A stretch of DNA of 64,000 nt from a virus. Lineage: Duplodnaviria; Caudoviricetes. The stretch covers positions 1 through 64,000 of the IMG/VR virus record IMGVR_UViG_3300021387_000141. One strand, 5' to 3'. The notes under the pieces were generated by a model. The model was not told where the DNA came from, searched no databases, and worked only from the letters and a program-made list of their open reading frames with translations. Of the stretch, positions 9,312-56,655 are shown piece by piece; within the stretch, counting starts at the first letter, position 1, and each line of letters starts with the position of its first letter. The translations under genes were made by a program, and so were the position numbers.

Positions 9312-10541
9312 TTACGGGATCTTCTCAATCTCGGATTTTAACCAGGAAGTATCTCTCTGGGTGTAGACAGATTCGGTAATATCTTTAATCCGATGTCCAA
9401 CGATATACTTGATCGCGTACTCATCCATTTGATATTTCTTCGCCATGGTGACAAAAGTGACCCGGCCGTCGTGCGGCTTATGATCCGGATTTAATCCGAG
9501 CTGCTCGATGAGTTTATTCAAATTTTCGAAGTATCGTATGTAGGTCATCTGATCCGCTTTCCGGCCCATGGTCGTCGGTACACTGATCAGATATTCCCGG
9601 TTTTGTGATACCCCTTCCTGATACCAACGTTCCACAATCGGAAAAATTCGGGAATGGATCGGGACAATACGGTTTTTACCGGCTTTTGTCTTCATTCCAC
9701 CGGTAATAAGACCTTCCTGTAAATCAATGTTTGATATTTTCAGGCTTTCCAGTTCTTTCGGACGCCATCCGGTATAACATTGAAACAGGATCACTTTCGC
9801 TAACGGGAACGAATTGATATTTTCCCACAAAATCTTTAATTCCTTATCGGTATACGGAATATGAGCCGTTCGTTCTTCTTCCAGTAATTGTGAATCTTTT
9901 TTCGGAACGGATGCTTCTTTCGCATAGTTACGATCCACGATTTCATACTCCAGCGCATAATCAAACATTTTATTGAACAGCGTTTTCATGTTTTTCCGTA
10001 TGACCGGCGTAGTGTGCTTTTCAACCCCTTTTGATATTACGGTGCCTTCTTCAAAGCATTGCTTAATATGCCGGGCCCGAATTTCGCGTACTTTTACTTT
10101 TTTCAGCATATCGCAATAATTCCAGGCGCCTTTCAGGTTTTTGGATGAACCATACGGGGCGTCTTTAAAGTAATTTTCACCCCAGCGCTGATAAAGTTCT
10201 TCCAGGGTGATGTCTTTATTGATATCAAATGGGTTTTTACCATATTCCATCAAAGCCTGATAAGCTTCATTATAGGTTTTAAAATATGCTTCCGGCTGCA
10301 ATAATTTGCAAATCGGTTTCCCTTCGTCGGTTTTTCCGATCGTGATCATAGCTCGGAAAGGTTTACGAAGGTTTTGGCCTTTTAATTCAGAAATCTGGCC
10401 GAATCCATTTGGAAGACGTTTCCGTCTGTTTGATATTCTTCTTTTGGAAACAGCTTCTTTCTGTAATGGATAACCGCAATGGGGACATGCCAGTGCTTTA
10501 TCACTGACCGGCAATTCACATTCTGGGCATTTTGTCAGCAT
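9312..10541 (-). CDS. int: Tyrosine recombinase (phage integrase) with N-terminal zinc ribbon
   Basis: CPEC..CPHC N-terminus; catalytic set R (TGWRPKE), K (KTKAG), HxxR (HDGR), H (VGH), Y (SVY). Confidence 0.92.
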   Translation of the reverse strand: MLTKCPECELPVSDKALACPHCGYPLQKEAVSKRRISNRRKRLPNGFGQISELKGQNLRKPFRAMITIGKTDEGKPICKLLQPEAYFKTYNEAYQALMEYGKNPFDINKDITLEELYQRWGENYFKDAPYGSSKNLKGAWNYCDMLKKVKVREIRARHIKQCFEEGTVISKGVEKHTTPVIRKNMKTLFNKMFDYALEYEIVDRNYAKEASVPKKDSQLLEEERTAHIPYTDKELKILWENINSFPLAKVILFQCYTGWRPKELESLKISNIDLQEGLITGGMKTKAGKNRIVPIHSRIFPIVERWYQEGVSQNREYLISVPTTMGRKADQMTYIRYFENLNKLIEQLGLNPDHKPHDGRVTFVTMAKKYQMDEYAIKYIVGHRIKDITESVYTQRDTSWLKSEIEKIP

Positions 10542-15793: not shown

Positions 15794-16588
15794 ATGCAGA
15801 ATCCGTTTTGGTATGATGCTTTAACAAATTCGTGTTTTTGTGCCTGTGAAAATGACATTCGGCATTTTCAGGATAAGATCAAAAATGGTTTTGAAGAAAA
15901 GGAGCAGCCCATGACAAAAATCGAAACTCACGCCGCGATTTGTAAAGAATTAACCGATTTGTACGAACGTAAAAACGCCGACTACGGCGATAGTTTTGCT
16001 GAACTTCGGAAGGAATTTCCGAATTCCATCACTTACCGCCTGACAGATAAACTGAACCGGCTGAAGAAACTCTATGATCCGGAGCATCAGCAGCAGGTAA
16101 AAGATGAATCTGTTGATGACACCCTGAAAGATATCGCCAATTACGCGATCCTGGAGCTGATCGAACGGGGATATGAACCGGATTATGAGAATGTTACGAA
16201 CATAACTCCGAATAAGCGTTTTCATCGGGTATTCAGCATATCTAATGAAAATTATAGCGATAATGATGGAAGAAATTTGTATTATTTGCATTTAGTAGAA
16301 CAAACAGTAAATAATACATTGCAAGGCAGAACCACCGATACAACCAACGGATGGGTTTTTTTAAATGAAGTTCTTGTGCCGCTTGGCTTTAAACCAACAG
16401 CTGAAGGCTTTCAGTATGGCTGGGTTTACAGCAAATTTGATCAGAAATATATGAATACTCGAATTGAATTTGAAATACGCTCAATTCCGATTTATACGCC
16501 AATGAGATACAATCTTTTTTTCGATTGCGTCCGGATCGATTTTGAAAAAGATCTGAATATTGGTTCTGAAATCACCGTACGCGGGTGA
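15794..16588 (+). CDS. DUF1599-like (nucleotide-modification-associated) domain fused to a DUF6353-like C-terminal domain
   Basis: LYERKNADYGDSF...RLTDKLNRL...ESVDDTLKDIANYAIL; C-terminal NGWVFLNEVLVPLGFKPTAEGFQYGWVYSK aligns with 23381..24310. Confidence 0.65.
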   Translation: MQNPFWYDALTNSCFCACENDIRHFQDKIKNGFEEKEQPMTKIETHAAICKELTDLYERKNADYGDSFAELRKEFPNSITYRLTDKLNRLKKLYDPEHQQQVKDESVDDTLKDIANYAILELIERGYEPDYENVTNITPNKRFHRVFSISNENYSDNDGRNLYYLHLVEQTVNNTLQGRTTDTTNGWVFLNEVLVPLGFKPTAEGFQYGWVYSKFDQKYMNTRIEFEIRSIPIYTPMRYNLFFDCVRIDFEKDLNIGSEITVRG

Positions 16589-17098: not shown

Positions 17099-17124
17099 TC
17101 GCAAAATTTTCATCTCCTTAAATG
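17099..17124 (+). promoter_or_regulatory. Phage promoter-like motif
   Basis: tcgc aaaattt tca tctcct taaatg. Confidence 0.7.
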
Positions 17125-17173
17125 AAGAGACTGCAGGGTCTCTTTTATTTTTTAAATAAGGAAAGGAAAACGA

Positions 17174-17644
17174 ATGAAAACCAAATTTAAAAACTGTAAC
17201 GAAGAAGATTTTGAAGAGTTCGATGATGAACTTGAACTCGAACTGGATGAAGAAATCGAAGAGGACGAAGAAATCCTTGACGAATATGAAAAAGGCAGCA
17301 ACAAGCTGCTGAAGGAAGTGAATGAACTCCCCAACGGGGAGGATCGCTCTCGGGCGATTAAAGATCTTGAGGTTATGTCGCGGATTGCGAATGACCGGAA
17401 GAAATTGCGGAATGAAAACCGCAAAATTAAGAAGGAATTGGCCCTTCGTGAAGAAGAGGTCGATAATGTAAAGCGCAACGGTGTGCTGAACACCATTGTG
17501 AATATCGGCGGCACGATTGTGTCATTTGTGGCCTACGGAATCTTGTTAGGCCGTCAGAACCGCTTTGAAAGCGGAGAAACGTATACGACATCAGGTTCCC
17601 GTAACCTGGTGAACAGTATCAATAGGATCATTAAACGGTCCTGA
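17174..17644 (+). CDS. Protein with acidic N-terminus, coiled coil and C-terminal membrane helix
   Basis: EEDFEEFDDELELELDEEIEEDEEILDEYE; IVNIGGTIVSFVAYGILLG. Confidence 0.7.
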   Translation: MKTKFKNCNEEDFEEFDDELELELDEEIEEDEEILDEYEKGSNKLLKEVNELPNGEDRSRAIKDLEVMSRIANDRKKLRNENRKIKKELALREEEVDNVKRNGVLNTIVNIGGTIVSFVAYGILLGRQNRFESGETYTTSGSRNLVNSINRIIKRS

Positions 17645-17701
17645 TTCAAAATGGAGTATGTGCTTCGGCATGTACTCCTCTTTTTATTTTTAGAGGTCAT
17701 T

Positions 17702-17944
17702 ATGCAAAAATACGAAAATCGAACGATATACGAGTGTGAAGTATGCGGGCTGCTGTATGCAAAAAGAGAAGACGCGATACAGTGTGAAGAAAATCACATC
17801 GATAAATTGACCGAAGCCAAGATCATTTATCCTCCCACCCCGGCCGGATTTTACAGTGTAAGAATGTTTGATGGGGTTTATCCAAATGCGATCACCGTCA
17901 ATTTTTGTGACGGAAGCAAACATATTTATAAACTTTTGCGGTAA
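17702..17944 (+). CDS. Small zinc-binding protein
   Basis: YECEVCG...CEENH. Confidence 0.6.
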   Translation: MQKYENRTIYECEVCGLLYAKREDAIQCEENHIDKLTEAKIIYPPTPAGFYSVRMFDGVYPNAITVNFCDGSKHIYKLLR

Positions 17945-17947
17945 ATC

Positions 17948-18307
17948 ATGCGCTATCACTATACCCCGTCCGACCATGGAGATGACGTCTATGGCCGGCT
18001 TTATTTTTGTGACCATCCAGTTTATAACCGCTGCACTTTATTTTTGATCCGGGGCCGCGGACTGGCGGTGATCCGGCAGTATTTCAATAAAAAAGACAAA
18101 CGCACTTACTGGCGGGAAATTGGACGAAATATCGCTGCGGACATTTACCTGAATCCGAAATTTCCGGAGATTTTTGAAAAACGGGCAAAGCCTTGTAAGG
18201 ACGGCCTTTATCCGACAATGACCGTCCGTCAAATCATGTGGGCTTTACGCATGAAGCCCTTACCGAAAAAACGTTGGGAAACTGTTTTTGACAGAAAGGA
18301 TATTTGA
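17948..18307 (+). CDS. Hypothetical phage protein
   Basis: Intact ORF in operon. Confidence 0.7.
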   Translation: MRYHYTPSDHGDDVYGRLYFCDHPVYNRCTLFLIRGRGLAVIRQYFNKKDKRTYWREIGRNIAADIYLNPKFPEIFEKRAKPCKDGLYPTMTVRQIMWALRMKPLPKKRWETVFDRKDI

Positions 18308-18308
18308 G

Positions 18309-18524
18309 ATGAACAAGATTACAAAATGCGATATCCATCGCTGTATCAGTGATCCTACGCTGATGGGCGTTTTTGTGTGGATCGATGATGATCCTGACTG
18401 GAAATTATTGTTTACTTATTATCCGAACGAATTGGTTTTTGATGCTGATGAATTTATTGGTTTGACCGAAGAAGACGCACTGGACCTTCACTGGCAGCGC
18501 GATCTGGAATATTTTCAATCATAA
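18309..18524 (+). CDS. Hypothetical protein
   Basis: RBS aaagga; operon position. Confidence 0.65.
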   Translation: MNKITKCDIHRCISDPTLMGVFVWIDDDPDWKLLFTYYPNELVFDADEFIGLTEEDALDLHWQRDLEYFQS

Positions 18525-18533
18525 GGAGCTATT

Positions 18534-18830
18534 ATGAATAATCATGAAAACATTTATTACCCCTTGCAAAATTTTATGCCGCCGGTTAAAGAAGAAAAAA
18601 TTTCTTTGCGGGAATGCAAAATCAGCAAAATTCAATGGGAATTGGAAAAATATATTACCCGTTCCCGAGCAGCATCATTAACCAAAATCCTTGAAGAAAA
18701 CGGTTTTACCTATTTTCAAAAATTGCTGGATGCGAATTTTGATCAATTCCGTGCGATCAAAGGGATCGGTCCGGTTTCATTGGACGCGATCCGGTCGGTT
18801 CGAAAAGCTTATGGTGTAAAGGAGAACTAA
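18534..18830 (+). CDS. RNA polymerase alpha-CTD-like (helix-hairpin-helix) protein
   Basis: RAASLTKILEENGFTYFQKLLDANFDQFRAIKGIGPVSLDAI parallels alpha-CTD RSYNCLKRAGINTVQEL...VRNLGRKSLEE. Confidence 0.6.
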   Translation: MNNHENIYYPLQNFMPPVKEEKISLRECKISKIQWELEKYITRSRAASLTKILEENGFTYFQKLLDANFDQFRAIKGIGPVSLDAIRSVRKAYGVKEN

Positions 18831-18832
18831 AT

Positions 18833-19156
18833 ATGGTAGCTACTTCAGAAAACTCAAACATTTCTATCGAAAAAATTATTGTCACCCGTCATCAGGGACT
18901 TGTTGACTGGCTGGAACGTCAGGGCATCACCGGAGAAGTAAAACCCAGCGTAACCGTAGATGATATCAAAGGAAAACATGTGATCGGCGCTTTGCCGGCG
19001 CATATTGCCCAGCATGCTTATCTGGTTACTTCCGTGGATTACACCTGCCCGTTTGAAAAGCGCGGTAAAAATCTGACCGCTGATGAACTGGACGAACTCG
19101 GCGCAAAGCTGTTTACGTACCGTGTTGTCCCGGTGTCCTGTGTTTCATTCAACTGA
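18833..19156 (+). CDS. csx16: Csx16 (VVA1548)-like protein; candidate viral ring nuclease
   Basis: IIVTRHQGLVDWLERQG...VIGALPAHIA...RGKNLTADELDELGAKLFTYRV matches the Csx16 pattern SRHxGAxxW...VIGTLP...RGRELSAEEL...GARLExY. Confidence 0.7.
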   Translation: MVATSENSNISIEKIIVTRHQGLVDWLERQGITGEVKPSVTVDDIKGKHVIGALPAHIAQHAYLVTSVDYTCPFEKRGKNLTADELDELGAKLFTYRVVPVSCVSFN

Positions 19157-19176: not shown

Positions 19177-19623
19177 ATGAAGGCAAAATATATCTTTACA
19201 AAAATCGGTTATCGCAAAAACGATCTTGAAGTAATGAATATCGTTCCGGAAACGGATGAAGATTATGATGTTGCTGATATTTTTCTCTCTGATTATTATT
19301 CTGATGAAGGGGAAACGATCTCGGTGGAAGCGAATGACCTGGATGAAGCAGTCGAACAGGCAAACCGTTGGTTCGGCACCTGTGCCACGGCGAATAATGT
19401 GCTGATCTCCTACACCTGCGATAATGCACCGGCATTGTCCAAAAATGATCATTATCGGGATATTCCGATCCCGGTGAAGACCCTTCATCATAATTTTCCG
19501 AAATGGTCAACCCTGACGGATAAACGCACCCGGAAATATTACGGAAAAAAGACCCAGCGTCCGGTTTATGACCCGGAAGGCTTGATTTTTGATTACCGGC
19601 AGTATACTTACCAGCCATACTGA
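19177..19623 (+). CDS. Hypothetical protein
   Basis: RBS ggagg; intact ORF. Confidence 0.7.
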   Translation: MKAKYIFTKIGYRKNDLEVMNIVPETDEDYDVADIFLSDYYSDEGETISVEANDLDEAVEQANRWFGTCATANNVLISYTCDNAPALSKNDHYRDIPIPVKTLHHNFPKWSTLTDKRTRKYYGKKTQRPVYDPEGLIFDYRQYTYQPY

Positions 19624-19624
19624 T

Positions 19625-19650
19625 TCGCGAAATTTACACCTCCTTAAATG
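19625..19650 (+). promoter_or_regulatory. Phage promoter-like motif
   Basis: tcgc gaaattt aca cctcct taaatg. Confidence 0.75.
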
Positions 19651-19702
19651 AAGAGACATTTGGTCTCTTTTAATTTTTTGTAATTTAAACTAAGGAGGTT
19701 TA

Positions 19703-20260: not shown

Positions 20261-21034
20261 ATGAATTTGGTAAAAACCGGAGGCATGATTGCCAGAGTTA
20301 TCGGCAAAAATGCCCCGATACTGATCAGCGCTGCGGCCGGGATTGGTCTGATAGCGCTTTATATTTTAACGATCAAAGAAACAGAAGAAGCACAGGAAGT
20401 ATTGAATGAAATGCCTGAGGAGGAGACTCAGGGTTTCAAAACTGCGGGAAAAATCGTAAAAATTTATGCTCCTTCTTTTATTTGCCTGATCGTTACCCTG
20501 TTTTGTATCGTAAGTTCGGCTTTGATCAGCCATCATCGGATCCGGGATCTGACGGCGTATGCCGCGGGGCTTAGTGCGGCATTCAATCAATATCGCCAGC
20601 AGATCATTTTTCAAAATGGAAAAGAGATGGATCAGAAAGTGATGGCAAAAGTGGCCAGAGCCCGTGTTGAAGAAGATCCTCCTAAAGATAAAGATGACGA
20701 CAGTGTTTTATGTCTGCTGCCCGGGTATGACTGCTTTTTTCATGTTCCAAGCACGGCGAATGTCTCGGAAGCATTTTTGGAATTGAACAAAAAGATCAAA
20801 GATGGCTATCGGGTGATCGAATTTCCGGAGTTTATGAAACTGGCCAAGGCAAAAGAACCGGTAAAACCGAAATTTTTATGTTATGGCTGGGAAACTTTTT
20901 ATCTGGAAGATAATTACCAGACGGATGCGTTTTATCCGAACATTTTCAAAGAAACAGATGACGATGGTCTGGAATATTATGTGATCGATAATGTTCCGAT
21001 GCCGAGACTGCTGGAAGAAAGGATATTCTTTTGA
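20261..21034 (+). CDS. DUF6353-like protein, paralog 1
   Basis: Two hydrophobic segments then AAYAAGLSAAFNQYR-type helix; same architecture as 21394 and 23381. Confidence 0.6.
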   Translation: MNLVKTGGMIARVIGKNAPILISAAAGIGLIALYILTIKETEEAQEVLNEMPEEETQGFKTAGKIVKIYAPSFICLIVTLFCIVSSALISHHRIRDLTAYAAGLSAAFNQYRQQIIFQNGKEMDQKVMAKVARARVEEDPPKDKDDDSVLCLLPGYDCFFHVPSTANVSEAFLELNKKIKDGYRVIEFPEFMKLAKAKEPVKPKFLCYGWETFYLEDNYQTDAFYPNIFKETDDDGLEYYVIDNVPMPRLLEERIFF

Positions 21035-21393: not shown

Positions 21394-22185
21394 ATGATAA
21401 AAATTCCATTTGGTGCTGCTGCCAGGAGTGTGCTCACCCTGGCAAAAGCAAACGCCACTCCGATTTCCACCGCAATGGTGATCCTCGGAATGGTTTCTGC
21501 GGTCGTTCTGGCGGTAAAAGCCGGAAAAGAATCTGTTGAAGATATTGAGGAAGCCAAAGAAGAGCTTGAAACGGATGAGCTGACTTTCGGAGAAATCATC
21601 CGTGCGACATGGAAACGCTTTCTTCCGGTATTTTTGATCCTTGGTCTGTCGATCGCCTGTCTGGTGGTGAACACGAATCGAATGATGAAGCGCTATGCCG
21701 CATTATCGACAGCATATGCGCTTTCTGAAAGTTATTTGAAAGATTATATGGAAACCACCAAGGAAACGGTCGGCGCGAAAAAAGAACAGCAGATCCGTGA
21801 TGATGTTATGGATAAACAGGTGAAGGACCATCCGTTTGATAAAGAAGCTGAACGTGGGATCGTTGAAACCGGAAAAGGCAATACTTTATTTTATGACGCG
21901 ATCACAACCCGGTTTTTTCGTTCATCCATGGATAAGGTAAAAGCCGCGGAGCGTGACCTTGCCGGGATTTATGCAACGGAAGATGTCGTATATCTGGATG
22001 ATTATACCAATGCTCTCGGGCTTGGTAAATATTCAGAATGCGGAAATTATCTCGGCTGGCAGAAAACCGGTAAATTTGACGGATCCGAAAATCTGATGTT
22101 TGATTATTCTTCCGGTTTGACAGCCAGCGGTGAACCGTATGTGGCAATTTATCATTATCGCAACCGATTGAGCGTTATCCGCTGA
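21394..22185 (+). CDS. DUF6353-like protein, paralog 2
   Basis: KRYAALSTAYALSESYLKDY...TLFYDAITTRFF...LGW. Confidence 0.65.
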   Translation: MIKIPFGAAARSVLTLAKANATPISTAMVILGMVSAVVLAVKAGKESVEDIEEAKEELETDELTFGEIIRATWKRFLPVFLILGLSIACLVVNTNRMMKRYAALSTAYALSESYLKDYMETTKETVGAKKEQQIRDDVMDKQVKDHPFDKEAERGIVETGKGNTLFYDAITTRFFRSSMDKVKAAERDLAGIYATEDVVYLDDYTNALGLGKYSECGNYLGWQKTGKFDGSENLMFDYSSGLTASGEPYVAIYHYRNRLSVIR

Positions 22186-23380: not shown

Positions 23381-24310
23381 ATGAATTTAAAACTGATTTT
23401 AGCCAAAACCGGGCTTGTCTTAAAACAGGCAAGCCCTGAACTTTTAACCGGCGGCGGGATTATTCTGAGTATTGCTGCTCTGATCACTGCCTGTTCGAAA
23501 ATGAAAGAAACCGAAGAAGTAAATGAAGAAATCCAGGATGAAATTGAAACCATTCAGGATGAAGAAGAACGCGGAACAAAAGAATATGTCGGCCGCATGT
23601 TTAAACTTGCGATGAAGGCCGTCTGGAAGTATCTGAAGATTTTCTGGATCCCAGTGCTGTTGGAATTGATGTCGATTTTCGGCATCTGGTATTCTCATGG
23701 GATCATGGTGAAACGGAATGCCGATCTGGCTTCAGCGGCAGTGATCCTAACCCAGCAAATGGATAAATATCGAGCCCGGGTCCGGGATAAAGTCGGCGAA
23801 GAAACGGAAAATGATCTGTTTTACGGTCTGACCAATAAAAAAGTCGGTGAAGTGACTGAAGATCTCGGTGATGGAAAAACCAAAAAGCGCCCTATTTATG
23901 AAAAAGAAATGACGGATGGCGCTGAAGGTCCGTTTGACCGTATTTTTGACCGATCGAATCATAACTATCAAAGCACTCCGGGCGCGAACATGGTTTTTCT
24001 GGATATGGTCCGGAAATCCTGTAAAAGCATTATGGAAGGCCGCGCAACGAACCATTCCAACGGCTGGTATTTGATGAGCGAAGTTTACCAGCAGCTTGGT
24101 TACGAACCGACTGCCGAAAGTTTCCATTGGGGCTGGGTCTGGAGTAAGTATGATCCGAAATTCAGCGGTACATTCATTGATTTTGGTATCAATGATTACA
24201 GCGATTCGGTTGTACACGACTTTGTAAATGGTTTGGAACCGGCGATCCCGCTGCATTTCAACTGCCAGCCGGTGGATGTATTTAAAGATCTCAACCTGAT
24301 GAAGATCTAA
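23381..24310 (+). CDS. DUF6353-like protein, paralog 3
   Basis: KRNADLASAA...KYRARVRDKVGEE...EVYQQLGYEPT..GW..IDFG. Confidence 0.65.
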   Translation: MNLKLILAKTGLVLKQASPELLTGGGIILSIAALITACSKMKETEEVNEEIQDEIETIQDEEERGTKEYVGRMFKLAMKAVWKYLKIFWIPVLLELMSIFGIWYSHGIMVKRNADLASAAVILTQQMDKYRARVRDKVGEETENDLFYGLTNKKVGEVTEDLGDGKTKKRPIYEKEMTDGAEGPFDRIFDRSNHNYQSTPGANMVFLDMVRKSCKSIMEGRATNHSNGWYLMSEVYQQLGYEPTAESFHWGWVWSKYDPKFSGTFIDFGINDYSDSVVHDFVNGLEPAIPLHFNCQPVDVFKDLNLMKI

Positions 24311-42783: not shown

Positions 42784-43638
42784 ATGACTAGTTTTATCTC
42801 TATGCTGGGCGGCGCGGATGCCAAATCGATCGAAGCCAAATTCAATGATATTTCTGAGAATCTGAACGTGCTTTCTTCCAGAATTGCTGAGCTGGATGCA
42901 GTTGTGACTAAGCTGGACAAATACACGATGAATCTGGAAGCCGGTATTCGCAATAACGAGATCTGCTGCACTGAACTGAAGCAAAAATACAGCAGCGAAG
43001 GCCTGACCAAGCGGGTTGATGACGTCGATCGCATGGTCCGGTATTTCCAATCCTCTCACGGCAAGGTACTGAATGATATTCGGGACCTGAAAAAGGAACT
43101 CCATGGTTTGTACGGACGCCAGTGCCCGCCCCCACAGGAAGAACTGGATAAATCCATCGCGAAGGACAACAGCGAGATCCTGCTGAGTGATATTATTACG
43201 AACCTGATTCCGGAATACCATGAACGCGGATGTGTATTAAAAGCCATGAAACGAAATGGTTGGAAGACCGTTTCCGATCTGCTGGCGGTTCCTTATTCTC
43301 AGCTTCCGGACAGGCCATGGCTCGGTAAGAAAGTCCTTGCAGTTTTTCAGTGCATTTACGAACAATACGGGAAGATCGACCCGAAGGCCGTATCGGATGA
43401 TATTCCGGACACGGATCTGAAAAAGGCAATCTTTGACATGGAAGGCAGCACCAAGACCAAATCCAGGGTCTATAACATGCTGAAAAAAGAGGGCATTTTT
43501 ACGCTTGAACAGCTGGCGCAGAAATCCTTGCTGCAGTTATGCACGGATCATCCCGATTTTCGTAAAGGCCGTGCAGGCGATCTTTTGTCGGCTGTTTATA
43601 CCAAATACATCTGGACCGAAGGAGAAAAGGATGCGTAA
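42784..43638 (+). CDS. Coiled-coil protein with two C-terminal RNAP alpha-CTD-like domains
   Basis: CVLKAMKRNGWKTVSDLLAVPYSQL..RPWLGKK and RVYNMLKKEGIFTLEQLAQKSLLQL. Confidence 0.65.
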   Translation: MTSFISMLGGADAKSIEAKFNDISENLNVLSSRIAELDAVVTKLDKYTMNLEAGIRNNEICCTELKQKYSSEGLTKRVDDVDRMVRYFQSSHGKVLNDIRDLKKELHGLYGRQCPPPQEELDKSIAKDNSEILLSDIITNLIPEYHERGCVLKAMKRNGWKTVSDLLAVPYSQLPDRPWLGKKVLAVFQCIYEQYGKIDPKAVSDDIPDTDLKKAIFDMEGSTKTKSRVYNMLKKEGIFTLEQLAQKSLLQLCTDHPDFRKGRAGDLLSAVYTKYIWTEGEKDA

Positions 43639-53311: not shown

Positions 53312-53846
53312 AGGCCGCCATGCATTTTTAGGTGCGAGCAAATACCATTGGATCAACTATGACGAAAGCAAGATCGCTGAAGCATACCGAAATGACCTGG
53401 CAAAAGAACGCGGAACCATATTGCATGATTTTGCTTCCCAGTGTATTCGGCTGAACCAGCGTCTGCCGAAATCCTCGCAGACATTGAACATGTTTGTGAA
53501 TGACGCGATCGGCTATAAGATGCGTTCCGAACAGCCGCTATATTTCAGCGAGAACTGTTTCGGGACCGCGGATGCGATCTGTTTTCGGAAGAACCTGCTG
53601 CGCATCCATGACCTGAAGACCGGTTTCACACCGGCGCATATGGAGCAGCTCTATATTTACAATGCGCTATTTTGCCTTGAGTACCATTTCGATCCGCATG
53701 AGATCGAGACCGAACTTCGTATTTATCAGTCGAATGAGGTCTTATGTGAAGAACCGGATCCGGACAATATTTCTGAAATTATGGAAAAGATCAAAGCTTT
53801 TGACAAAATTTTACGAGATATTCAGCTGAAGGAGAGTGAAGCCTGA
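53283..53846 (+). CDS. PD-(D/E)xK (Cas4/DUF2800-like) exonuclease
   Basis: RGTILH...SEQPLY...FGTADAI...IHDLKTG...QLYIY. Confidence 0.75.
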   Translation: MNFNVHSNLEGRHAFLGASKYHWINYDESKIAEAYRNDLAKERGTILHDFASQCIRLNQRLPKSSQTLNMFVNDAIGYKMRSEQPLYFSENCFGTADAICFRKNLLRIHDLKTGFTPAHMEQLYIYNALFCLEYHFDPHEIETELRIYQSNEVLCEEPDPDNISEIMEKIKAFDKILRDIQLKESEA

Positions 53847-56655
53847 TATGAGCAATAGTACAGCAATTAATATTTTAATTACCATGGCTAAGAAAGCCAA
53901 AAACCCGACGGTCAAGGATATTTTGCTTAGCGCAGCGGACATGAGCGATTCCGATTTTATTATGCATTACGGAACAAAGCGTCACTCCGGACGATATCCC
54001 TGGGGTTCAGGCGACAATCCATATCAGCATGAAATCGATTTTTTGAATCGTGTCCGCAAGATGCGGAACAAGGGATATTCCGAACTGACCATTGCAAAGA
54101 AGTGCGGATATTCTACGACCAGCGAACTGCGTTCCGCAGTCCGTTCGGCCAATAATGACATTTCTCAATATCGTATCCAGTGGGCCAACCAGTTATTAAA
54201 AGATGGCTTGACCCAGACCGAAGCCGCCCGGCGCATGGATATTCCGGAATCGACATTTCGTTCGATCATGGACAAACAGCGACAGGCCCGCGCTAATAAA
54301 GCGCAGTCGACTGCTAATTTTCTGAAATCCGTTGTTGACGAACGCGGCCCGATCGATATTGGTGCCGAAGTCAACCGTGAATTGAATATTTCCAACGAGA
54401 AACTGACACAGGCAGTCGATATTTTAAAGAAGCAGGGTTATGAAGTCCGTGTCGGTTCCATGCCTCAGGTAACGAATGAGCATGGCCAGCGGACGACCCT
54501 TAAAATTTTATGTCCTCCCGGATCTCCGAAGAACCAGGCATATTTGTATGACGATATTTCTCCGTTATTTGACTATGCCAAAGAATATTCTTCTTCCGAT
54601 GGAGGCAAAACTTTCGATAAATTCGAATATCCTGCATCCATGGACTCCAAAAGAATATTTGTCCGATATTTGGAAGACGGCGGTGCGGACCGTGACGGAT
54701 TAATTGAACTCCGCCGCGGTGTTGAGGATTTATCGCTCGGCGGTTCCCGATATTCTCAAGTCCGAATATTAGTGGACGGGAATAAATATATGAAAGGAAT
54801 GGCCGTATATTCCGACAATATTCCGGATGGCTACGATGTTATTTACAACAGCCGTAAGTCCAGGGAAAAGGGCGAAGACCCGTTTAAGGATATTAAAAAA
54901 GATGACCCGACGAACCCCTTCGGTTCCTATATTTCACCAAGGGGTCAGAGCCATTATATTGACTCGAAGACCGGAGAACGAAAATTATCTCTGATCAATA
55001 AACGTGCCGACGAAGGCGACTGGAACGACTGGTCCAAGTCCCTGCCTTCCCAATTTTTGTCCAAGCAGAACAAGAAGCTGATCGAGAATCAGTTAAATTT
55101 GTCCATTGCTGACAAGATGGCCGAGTACGAGGATATTTGCAACCTGACCAACCCGACCGTAAAGCGCCGATTATTAGAGACCTTTGCTGAGGATTGTGAC
55201 GCGACTTCCGTCCATCTGGACGCGGCTGCCCTTCCCAGACAGCGCTATCAGGTTATTATTCCGCTGCCCTCCCTAAAGAAGGATCAAATTTATGCTCCGA
55301 ATTTTAAGGATGGCGAGAAAGTGGCTTTGGTCCGCTACCCTCATGGCGGGATTTTTGAGATCCCCGTCCTTACCGTAAATAACAAAAATCGGGAAGGGAT
55401 TTCTATATTATCTAAAAATCCGACCGACGCCGTAGGCATCAATATTGAGGCCGCCAAACAGCTGTCCGGCGCGGACTTTGACGGTGACACGGTCATGGTG
55501 ATCCCGTTATCCTCTAAGGTGCAGGTCTCTCACAGACCATATTTGGACGCCCTGAAAGGCTTCGACCCTGAAGTCGAATATCCGAAACGTGAAGGCATGA
55601 AGCCCATGCAGCGTACGGATATTGAGATGGGCAAGATCACCAATCTTATTATGGACATGACTCTTGCAGGCGCCCCTGAAGACGAGGTTGCCCGTGCCGT
55701 CAAGCACTCCATGGTTGTTATTGACGCCAAGAAGCACGAGCTTGACTGGCAGCTCTCTGAAGAACAGAACAAGATCAAGGAGCTGAAGGACAAGTATCAG
55801 GGCCACTATGATGAGAACGGCCGCTGGCGCCATGGTTCGGGTACCATCGTGACCCGTGCCAAGAGCCCGGAACGCGTCACCAAACGCCGTGGTGAGTTCG
55901 ACATCGATCCCGAGACAGGCAAGAAGATCTGGAAGGAAGCCTTCGATGCTCACTACGAAGACGCAAAGGGCAAGCCCAAGACGCGTACTCAGGAAAGCTA
56001 CCGAATGCTCGAGACCGATGACCCTTACAGTCTTGTCTCCGGCATGAACACGCAGACCGAACAGCTTTACGCCCGCTATGCGGCGCAGCTGAAAGCGCTG
56101 GCCAATCAGGCACGTAAAGAGTACAAGTACAACACGCCGAACCTGGAATACAGCCCTTCGGCTCACAAAGTGTACAAGAAGGAAGTCGATTCCCTCACTG
56201 AAAAGCTGCGCCAAAGCCGCTTGAACGCTCCCCGTGAACGTGAAGCGCAGCGCCGCGCCAATGTGCAGCTGGAACGGCTTTTTAAAGAAAATCCGGAACT
56301 CCGGGACGATAAAAAACAAAGAGGCAAATACGCTCAGCAATATTTGACCGCTGCCCGTGTGGCAGTAGGCGCTCAGCGCTATAAGATTGAGATCACGCCG
56401 GCCGAATGGACCGCGATCCAGGCCGGAGCAATATCTGACAGCCTGCTGAAGCAAATATTAGACGCAACGGACACCAATACGGTGCGCGAATACGCGACTC
56501 CGCGCAATTCAGACACCATGTCCAATGCTAAAAAAGCCAGATTATTTTCTCTTCGTCGTTCCGGTTACAGTAATGCGGAGATCGCAGACGCGCTCAATGT
56601 GCCTGTCTCGACGATCCTTTATTACGTACGCCAGGAAAAAGAAGGCAAACTCTAG
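53836..56655 (+). CDS. Putative single-subunit two-barrel (DPBB) DNA-dependent RNA polymerase with terminal HTH domains
   Basis: LSGADFDGD (55468-55488) catalytic loop preceded by LVRYP; QVRI..KG; HSMVVIDAKKH; HTHs TQTEAARRMDIPESTFRS and SNAEIADALNVPVSTI. Confidence 0.72.
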   Translation: MKPDMSNSTAINILITMAKKAKNPTVKDILLSAADMSDSDFIMHYGTKRHSGRYPWGSGDNPYQHEIDFLNRVRKMRNKGYSELTIAKKCGYSTTSELRSAVRSANNDISQYRIQWANQLLKDGLTQTEAARRMDIPESTFRSIMDKQRQARANKAQSTANFLKSVVDERGPIDIGAEVNRELNISNEKLTQAVDILKKQGYEVRVGSMPQVTNEHGQRTTLKILCPPGSPKNQAYLYDDISPLFDYAKEYSSSDGGKTFDKFEYPASMDSKRIFVRYLEDGGADRDGLIELRRGVEDLSLGGSRYSQVRILVDGNKYMKGMAVYSDNIPDGYDVIYNSRKSREKGEDPFKDIKKDDPTNPFGSYISPRGQSHYIDSKTGERKLSLINKRADEGDWNDWSKSLPSQFLSKQNKKLIENQLNLSIADKMAEYEDICNLTNPTVKRRLLETFAEDCDATSVHLDAAALPRQRYQVIIPLPSLKKDQIYAPNFKDGEKVALVRYPHGGIFEIPVLTVNNKNREGISILSKNPTDAVGINIEAAKQLSGADFDGDTVMVIPLSSKVQVSHRPYLDALKGFDPEVEYPKREGMKPMQRTDIEMGKITNLIMDMTLAGAPEDEVARAVKHSMVVIDAKKHELDWQLSEEQNKIKELKDKYQGHYDENGRWRHGSGTIVTRAKSPERVTKRRGEFDIDPETGKKIWKEAFDAHYEDAKGKPKTRTQESYRMLETDDPYSLVSGMNTQTEQLYARYAAQLKALANQARKEYKYNTPNLEYSPSAHKVYKKEVDSLTEKLRQSRLNAPREREAQRRANVQLERLFKENPELRDDKKQRGKYAQQYLTAARVAVGAQRYKIEITPAEWTAIQAGAISDSLLKQILDATDTNTVREYATPRNSDTMSNAKKARLFSLRRSGYSNAEIADALNVPVSTILYYVRQEKEGKL

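Follow-up and report, generated by a model that had tools for sequence, protein, structure and literature searches.

A Csx16-family protein of a temperate phage as a candidate cyclic oligoadenylate ring nuclease countering type III CRISPR immunity

A temperate phage carries, in a cassette of small genes, a member of the Csx16 (Cas_VVA1548) family, which related phages have long kept in the same place. We propose that this protein is probably a cyclic oligoadenylate (cOA) ring nuclease, most likely acting on cA4, that counters type III CRISPR. The gene is a 107-aa ORF on the + strand (18833..19156) of the window, i.e., the whole stretch of DNA that we analysed. The window corresponds to the first 64 kb (bases 1-64000) of an IMG/VR virus record of 90,190 bp, which bears direct terminal repeats and has a completeness rating of 100%. 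Its product would be a small Rossmann-like (CARF-like) enzyme, probably dimeric, expressed from the cassette during infection and possibly also in lysogens. It would bind the cyclic oligoadenylate made by the host Cas10, most likely cA4, and cut the ring to linear products, so that effectors with CARF domains (of the Csx1, Csm6, Can2 or Card1 type) would stay inactive and type III CRISPR immunity would be blunted. The idea of phage Csx16 as an anti-CRISPR has been anticipated in print (Hoikkala et al. 2025, PMC12409355). The present analysis is most useful for three new points: the slot of the gene is conserved in a widespread lineage of gut prophages, viral Csx16 seems to be abundant in metagenomes, and the choice between cA4 and cA6 becomes a question.

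The assignment of the product to the Csx16 family, made by sequence comparison, is secure. In a Pfam search, PF09652 (Cas_VVA1548) matched the 107-aa protein over profile positions 2-90 of 91 with 68.5 bits (E 5.9e-19), and a six-frame search of the phage genome reproduced this match. Since the gathering score of PF09652 is 25 bits, the match lies far beyond chance. A profile search against Cas_VVA1548/Csx16 was one of the checks proposed in an earlier, sequence-only reading of this DNA, and the Pfam family aligns end to end. The NCBIfam model TIGR02620 ("Csx16") covers this span as well with 33.4 bits, under its cut-off of 46.35 bits; this model is narrow, and it gives 96 and 120.6 bits to the proteins of the CRISPR loci of Stappia and Dechloromonas, respectively. 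Its cut-off does not divide phage from cellular forms, since P0047, a homologue found in a phage-like context, passes it with 50.5 bits while other homologues score 16-38. The sequence-only reading had started from three strings of the Csx16/VVA1548 pattern, and we recovered all of them, in an ORF lying exactly at 18833-19156 (+): T18-R19-H20-Q-G-L-V-D-W, V50-I-G-A-L-P-A-H-I-A, and R77-G-K-N-L-T-A-D-E-L...G-A-K-L-F-T-Y-R-V. It had also placed the protein outside the AcrIII-1 family; at the level of sequence profiles, PF08960 (AcrIII-1/DUF1874) does not match the 107-aa protein, for which PF09652 is the sole Pfam family at E ≤ 1. The AF2 model (pLDDT 94, pTM 0.81) displays alternating beta-alpha units, and with this model Foldseek returned no match at E ≤ 0.001 in either the PDB or BFVD. 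In PHROGs, the protein matched no family. When its sequence was compared with the PDB, only ankyrin/DARPin proteins came up, through the string "LPLHLAA", and these matches were discarded as spurious.

The residues that define the family are all in place. In an unbiased alignment of 53 sequences, G52 and P55 are invariant, R19, H20 and G78 reach 90% conservation or more, and A59 belongs to the same set (at least 90% conserved or invariant); the phage protein keeps every one of them. Its family signature is complete (T18-R19-H20, G52-x-L54-P55-x-H57, R77-G78), and it has T-R-H, G-x-L-P, A59, R-G and L81 in common with the CRISPR-locus proteins of Stappia and Dechloromonas. The conserved residues are also found in 27 other viral copies, in part because the search patterns were built on them. 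Such conservation bears on a different mode of action, which we judge quite improbable: Csx16 would act as a sponge for cOA, or cleave it only very slowly, and would sequester the signal rather than destroy it. Phage proteins of the Tad/Acb2 type are sponges, and some members of the present lineage have lost signature residues. Indeed, one orthologue located in the same phage slot (L092, 8001-8387; sequence P0042, seen on 15 contigs) carries both H20R and G78M, while two other same-slot orthologues (L003, 6001-6318; L094, 1396-1740) are devoid of R77. These variants persist on many contigs. Judging from their substitutions, they may be sponge-like or otherwise altered, and catalysis may be dispensable for the role in this lineage. 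A precedent exists in Csx15, a related CARF-like protein that is a good sponge and a poor nuclease (PMC13148439). On the other hand, the phage copy under study retains the full T-R-H and R-G signature, and the one cellular Csx16 characterised degrades cA4 fully at 100-fold excess, and neither cA6 nor cA3 (Hoikkala et al. 2025, PMC12409355).

The proposed ring nuclease activity is also consistent with the genomic context of cellular homologues. The sequence-only reading held that Csx16 is normally found in type III loci and has been reported to degrade cA4; the published degradation of cA4 (PMC12409355) and two loci that we inspected agree with this. In Stappia, the 98-aa homologue is encoded directly 3' of a 747-aa RAMP protein, 6.3 kb downstream of a Cas10 palm-domain match. 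In Dechloromonas sp. CP059264.1 (L091:9986-11787), 6 kb downstream of a strong Cas10 match, a stand-alone Csx16 is followed by a 501-aa protein in which Csx16 is fused to a Card1 CARF-endonuclease. Card1 is a cA4-activated effector, and the fusion may constitute a self-limiting cA4 effector, analogous to Csx1-Crn2. A third homologue, from Trueperaceae (L089), was dropped as a Cas10-adjacent case because the ORF map places the Cas10 match on another contig.

The phage copy lies outside any type III locus, as expected of a viral copy. Neither a CRISPR-like array nor a Cas10 palm domain was found in the complete phage genome, which agrees with the earlier statement that there is no CRISPR array or other cas gene in the window, and a carrier virus that itself lacks both is what one would look for in an anti-CRISPR. 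Compared with CRISPR-embedded Csx16 (PF09652/TIGR02620; PMC12409355), to which it is only 32-40% identical, the phage protein is encoded in a genome free of cas genes, scores under the TIGR02620 cut-off and groups in a clade for which every member sampled comes from a phage.

These contexts also weigh on the notion that Csx16 is unrelated to defence, acting for instance as a phosphodiesterase on RNA ends or nucleotides in phage nucleotide metabolism. The gene of P0047 (46% identity) indeed sits between ribonucleotide reductase and dCTP deaminase genes, and the family comprises more than 1,100 metagenomic clusters, many of them with extensions of no known function. However, in this lineage the gene stands apart from the nucleotide-metabolism genes, the cellular members of known context either belong to type III loci or are fusions with Card1, and such an activity is unreported for the Csx16 family. 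We thus consider this explanation very improbable.

Several viral proteins offer points of comparison. AcrIII-1/Crn2 (DUF1874, PF08960), reportedly described by Athukoralage et al. in 2020, is an established viral cA4 ring nuclease anti-CRISPR; its conserved residues differ from those of phage Csx16. To our knowledge, AcrIII-1 is so far the only ring nuclease for which the anti-CRISPR role has been shown directly. If active, phage Csx16 would join the ring nucleases with a demonstrated role of this kind. Crn4b and Csx20 (PMC12830947, PMC12409355) are also ring nucleases of CRISPR type found in phages or plasmids and presumed to be anti-CRISPRs; Crn4, which has a broad cOA specificity, is unrelated to the Csx16 fold, and Csx20 is only distantly related to it. 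Among 28,114 phage genomes, AcrIII-1 was found in 36, Csx20 in 4 and Csx16 in 2 (PMC12409355), and later papers from the laboratory of Hoikkala et al. generally take viral ring nucleases as anti-CRISPRs. Among cultured phages, we obtained matches only in Methanobacterium virus Drs3 and Bacillus phage Shbh1, which are presumably the two carriers counted by Hoikkala et al. 2025. The Drs3 "putative CRISPR-associated protein" and Shbh1 gp42 ("CRISPR related domain") likewise contain a Csx16 domain, stand-alone or extended, and are encoded by tailed viruses outside any cas context. They are 33-36% identical to the phage protein described here and come from other virus families, whose hosts are a methanogen (Drs3) and an alkaliphilic Bacillus (Shbh1); gp42 of the latter carries, in addition, an extra N-terminal region of about 80 aa.

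The phage genome encodes, among others, a Sipho_Gp37-type tail protein, a single-stranded DNA-binding protein, NrdD, a helicase, TerL, a primase-helicase of 1,339 aa (DUF5906/D5-type), a tyrosine integrase (9312-10541, - strand), and four DUF6353 paralogues (15794-16588, 20261-21034, 21394-22185 and 23381-24310), one of which also contains DUF1599. The cluster of DUF6353 genes is a conserved landmark of the phage lineage. A 284-aa protein (42784-43638) matches the C-terminal domain of the RNA polymerase alpha subunit and may be transcription-related, and a 939-aa protein (53836-56655) has HTH domains on both ends. A search for tRNA genes in the phage gave none. Species-representative genomes yielded no close match to the receptor-binding part of the tail protein, the similarity to other proteins being confined to its conserved N-terminal 160-210 residues. 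Relatives of TerL with 75-82% identity are found integrated in isolates of Hungatella hathewayi, Clostridium leptum, Cuneatibacter caecimuris, Blautia glucerasea and Lachnospira hominis, and also in many gut MAGs. From these integrated relatives, the host is most likely a member of the anaerobic gut Clostridia.

The integrase and the related elements integrated in isolate chromosomes establish that the phage is temperate. If active, Csx16 would provide a natural example of an enzyme directed against type III CRISPR, from a prophage lineage common among Clostridia of the human and animal gut, where phage-host arms races are poorly charted. The temperate lifestyle, together with the position of the gene near the integrase side of the genome, would also suit a protein that mainly serves the lysogen, by damping the type III signalling elicited by prophage transcripts (self-targeting) and thus favouring stable lysogeny over lytic escape. 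We grant this role a slender chance, as Csx16 is oriented like the lytic genes, opposite to the integrase, and lies in an element-bounded cassette.

This cassette consists of seven + strand genes, overlapping or tightly packed, between 17174 and 19623 (17174-17644, 17651-17944, 17948-18307, 18288-18524, 18534-18830, 18833-19156 and 19177-19623), of which Csx16 is the sixth. The Csx16 ATG starts 2 nt past the stop of the preceding gene, and a Shine-Dalgarno motif (AAGGAG, 18820..18825, + strand), read from the sequence, precedes it by 8 nt. No promoter-like element lies inside the cassette. Upstream, its boundary (17099..17145, + strand) is made of a promoter-like element followed by a hairpin (17124-17145) and a T-run; downstream (19625..19670, + strand), the next copy of the element is again combined with a hairpin and a T-run. 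The element, TCGCR-N7-CA-N4-CT-N4-T (25 nt), is present in 20 exact copies versus 0.2 expected in the window, all on the + strand and spanning 10973-52747 (e.g., 17099, 19625, 40744 and 42103), most of them directly 5' of a hairpin and T-run. It precedes many non-structural operons and is absent among the structural genes. This element could act as a promoter, recognised by a phage-specific polymerase or sigma factor, or could unite a terminator and a promoter in one unit. The cassette itself is located in the non-structural region, with the integrase on one side and the replication module on the other. Hence, of the earlier description of Csx16 as lying among small early genes, the small genes stand, in the form of this tightly packed + strand cassette, while "early" was read from position only.

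The neighbours of Csx16 have weak or no Pfam matches (DUF7128; a helix-hairpin-helix motif below threshold). The motif below the Pfam threshold belongs to the gene directly 5' of Csx16 (18534-18830), which may be transcription-related. Conserved partners among the neighbours were ruled out, since the upstream genes vary among the related contigs L003, L004, L092 and L094. In one of these, a related phage of 89.6 kb, the same small-gene region contains a Lar-type restriction-alleviation gene (L004:1156-1425), as one would expect of a region in which counter-defence genes accumulate.

As to the possible targets in the host, type III-A Cas10 (Csm1) is present in 34 of the 401 genomes sampled from the family of Hungatella. 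We inspected five type III-A loci of this candidate host family, and each has a Csm6 lying within 6-9 kb (TIGR02672, about 500 bits). Characterised Firmicutes Csm6 enzymes respond to cA6. A family specific for cA4 set against candidate hosts bearing Csm6 makes a concrete and testable question of substrate specificity. It is possible that the real host uses cA4 effectors, that the phage clade differs in specificity, or that the benefit is partial. The second of these would amount to the same fold and binding site with a shifted or broader substrate (cA6, cA3 or another cyclic nucleotide), directed against Csm6-bearing type III-A or CBASS-type systems of gut Firmicutes rather than against cA4 signalling. 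The Firmicutes-type Csm6 of these five loci points in this direction, as do the TIGR02620 scores (33 bits for the phage protein versus about 96-121 for the proteobacterial CRISPR Csx16). PF09652 has zero matches in the 401 genomes sampled from the candidate host family, which would fit a phage clade that evolved on its own. However, the only biochemistry at hand indicates strict cA4 specificity (PMC12409355), the conserved pocket residues are identical in phage and CRISPR-linked forms, and the host might carry cA4 effectors; we therefore hold a shifted substrate to be unlikely. The same zero among 401 genomes leaves unsupported a recent capture from the host and, with it, the earlier description of the gene as "captured".

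The distribution of the relatives points to a long residence in phages. A word-indexed search returned 41 near-length homologues, many of them 65-96% identical and carried on contigs of 72-90 kb. Related phage contigs of about 67-90 kb carry Csx16 in the same slot at 44-96% identity; in four contigs at 44-78% identity, this slot lies past the integrase-proximal small genes, with the DUF6353 cluster and the primase following after about 1 kb. As the slot is kept down to 44% identity, Csx16 is a long-standing resident of the phage lineage. Pairwise Nei-Gojobori dN/dS values of 0.13-0.5, with dS near saturation, indicate at the codon level that it is under purifying selection in related phages. 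Csx16 is nevertheless accessory, since PF09652 has no match in five isolate genomes with related prophages (TerL 78-82% identical); a search of five genomes with related prophages for AcrIII-1 (PF08960), which could have replaced it functionally in the slot, gave no match either. The query for related loci was an alignment of 12 sequences, the one of 53 being too diverse for this purpose, and the nearest sampled contexts of Csx16 were phage-like in five cases out of five.

At a larger scale, an exhaustive phmmer search of metagenomes yielded 1,114 clusters (at 50% identity) with E ≤ 0.001, including 203 with E ≤ 1e-10. A scan of IMG/VR that used two peptide patterns only added another 26 viral contigs, 5-192 kb long, whose homologues are 35-65% identical. 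These figures suggest that uncultured phages carry Csx16 far more often than one would expect from the 2 carriers among 28,114 cultured genomes. Csx16 could be, like AcrIII-1/Crn2, a chiefly viral family, with a large, old phage-resident clade independent of host CRISPR loci and perhaps endowed with a cA6 range or, in the variants devoid of His20, a sponge mode; we put this forward as a tentative proposal, with low confidence.

Many metagenomic homologues depart from the 107-aa architecture. In the long ones (150-309 aa), a scan for fused domains with Pfam recognised the Csx16 domain alone. Part of the homologues have N- or C-terminal extensions of 60-200 aa that match no Pfam family. Many others, of about 200-260 aa (P0043, P0063, P0067, P0074, P0082 and others), contain two tandem Csx16 domains and are possible single-chain "dimers".
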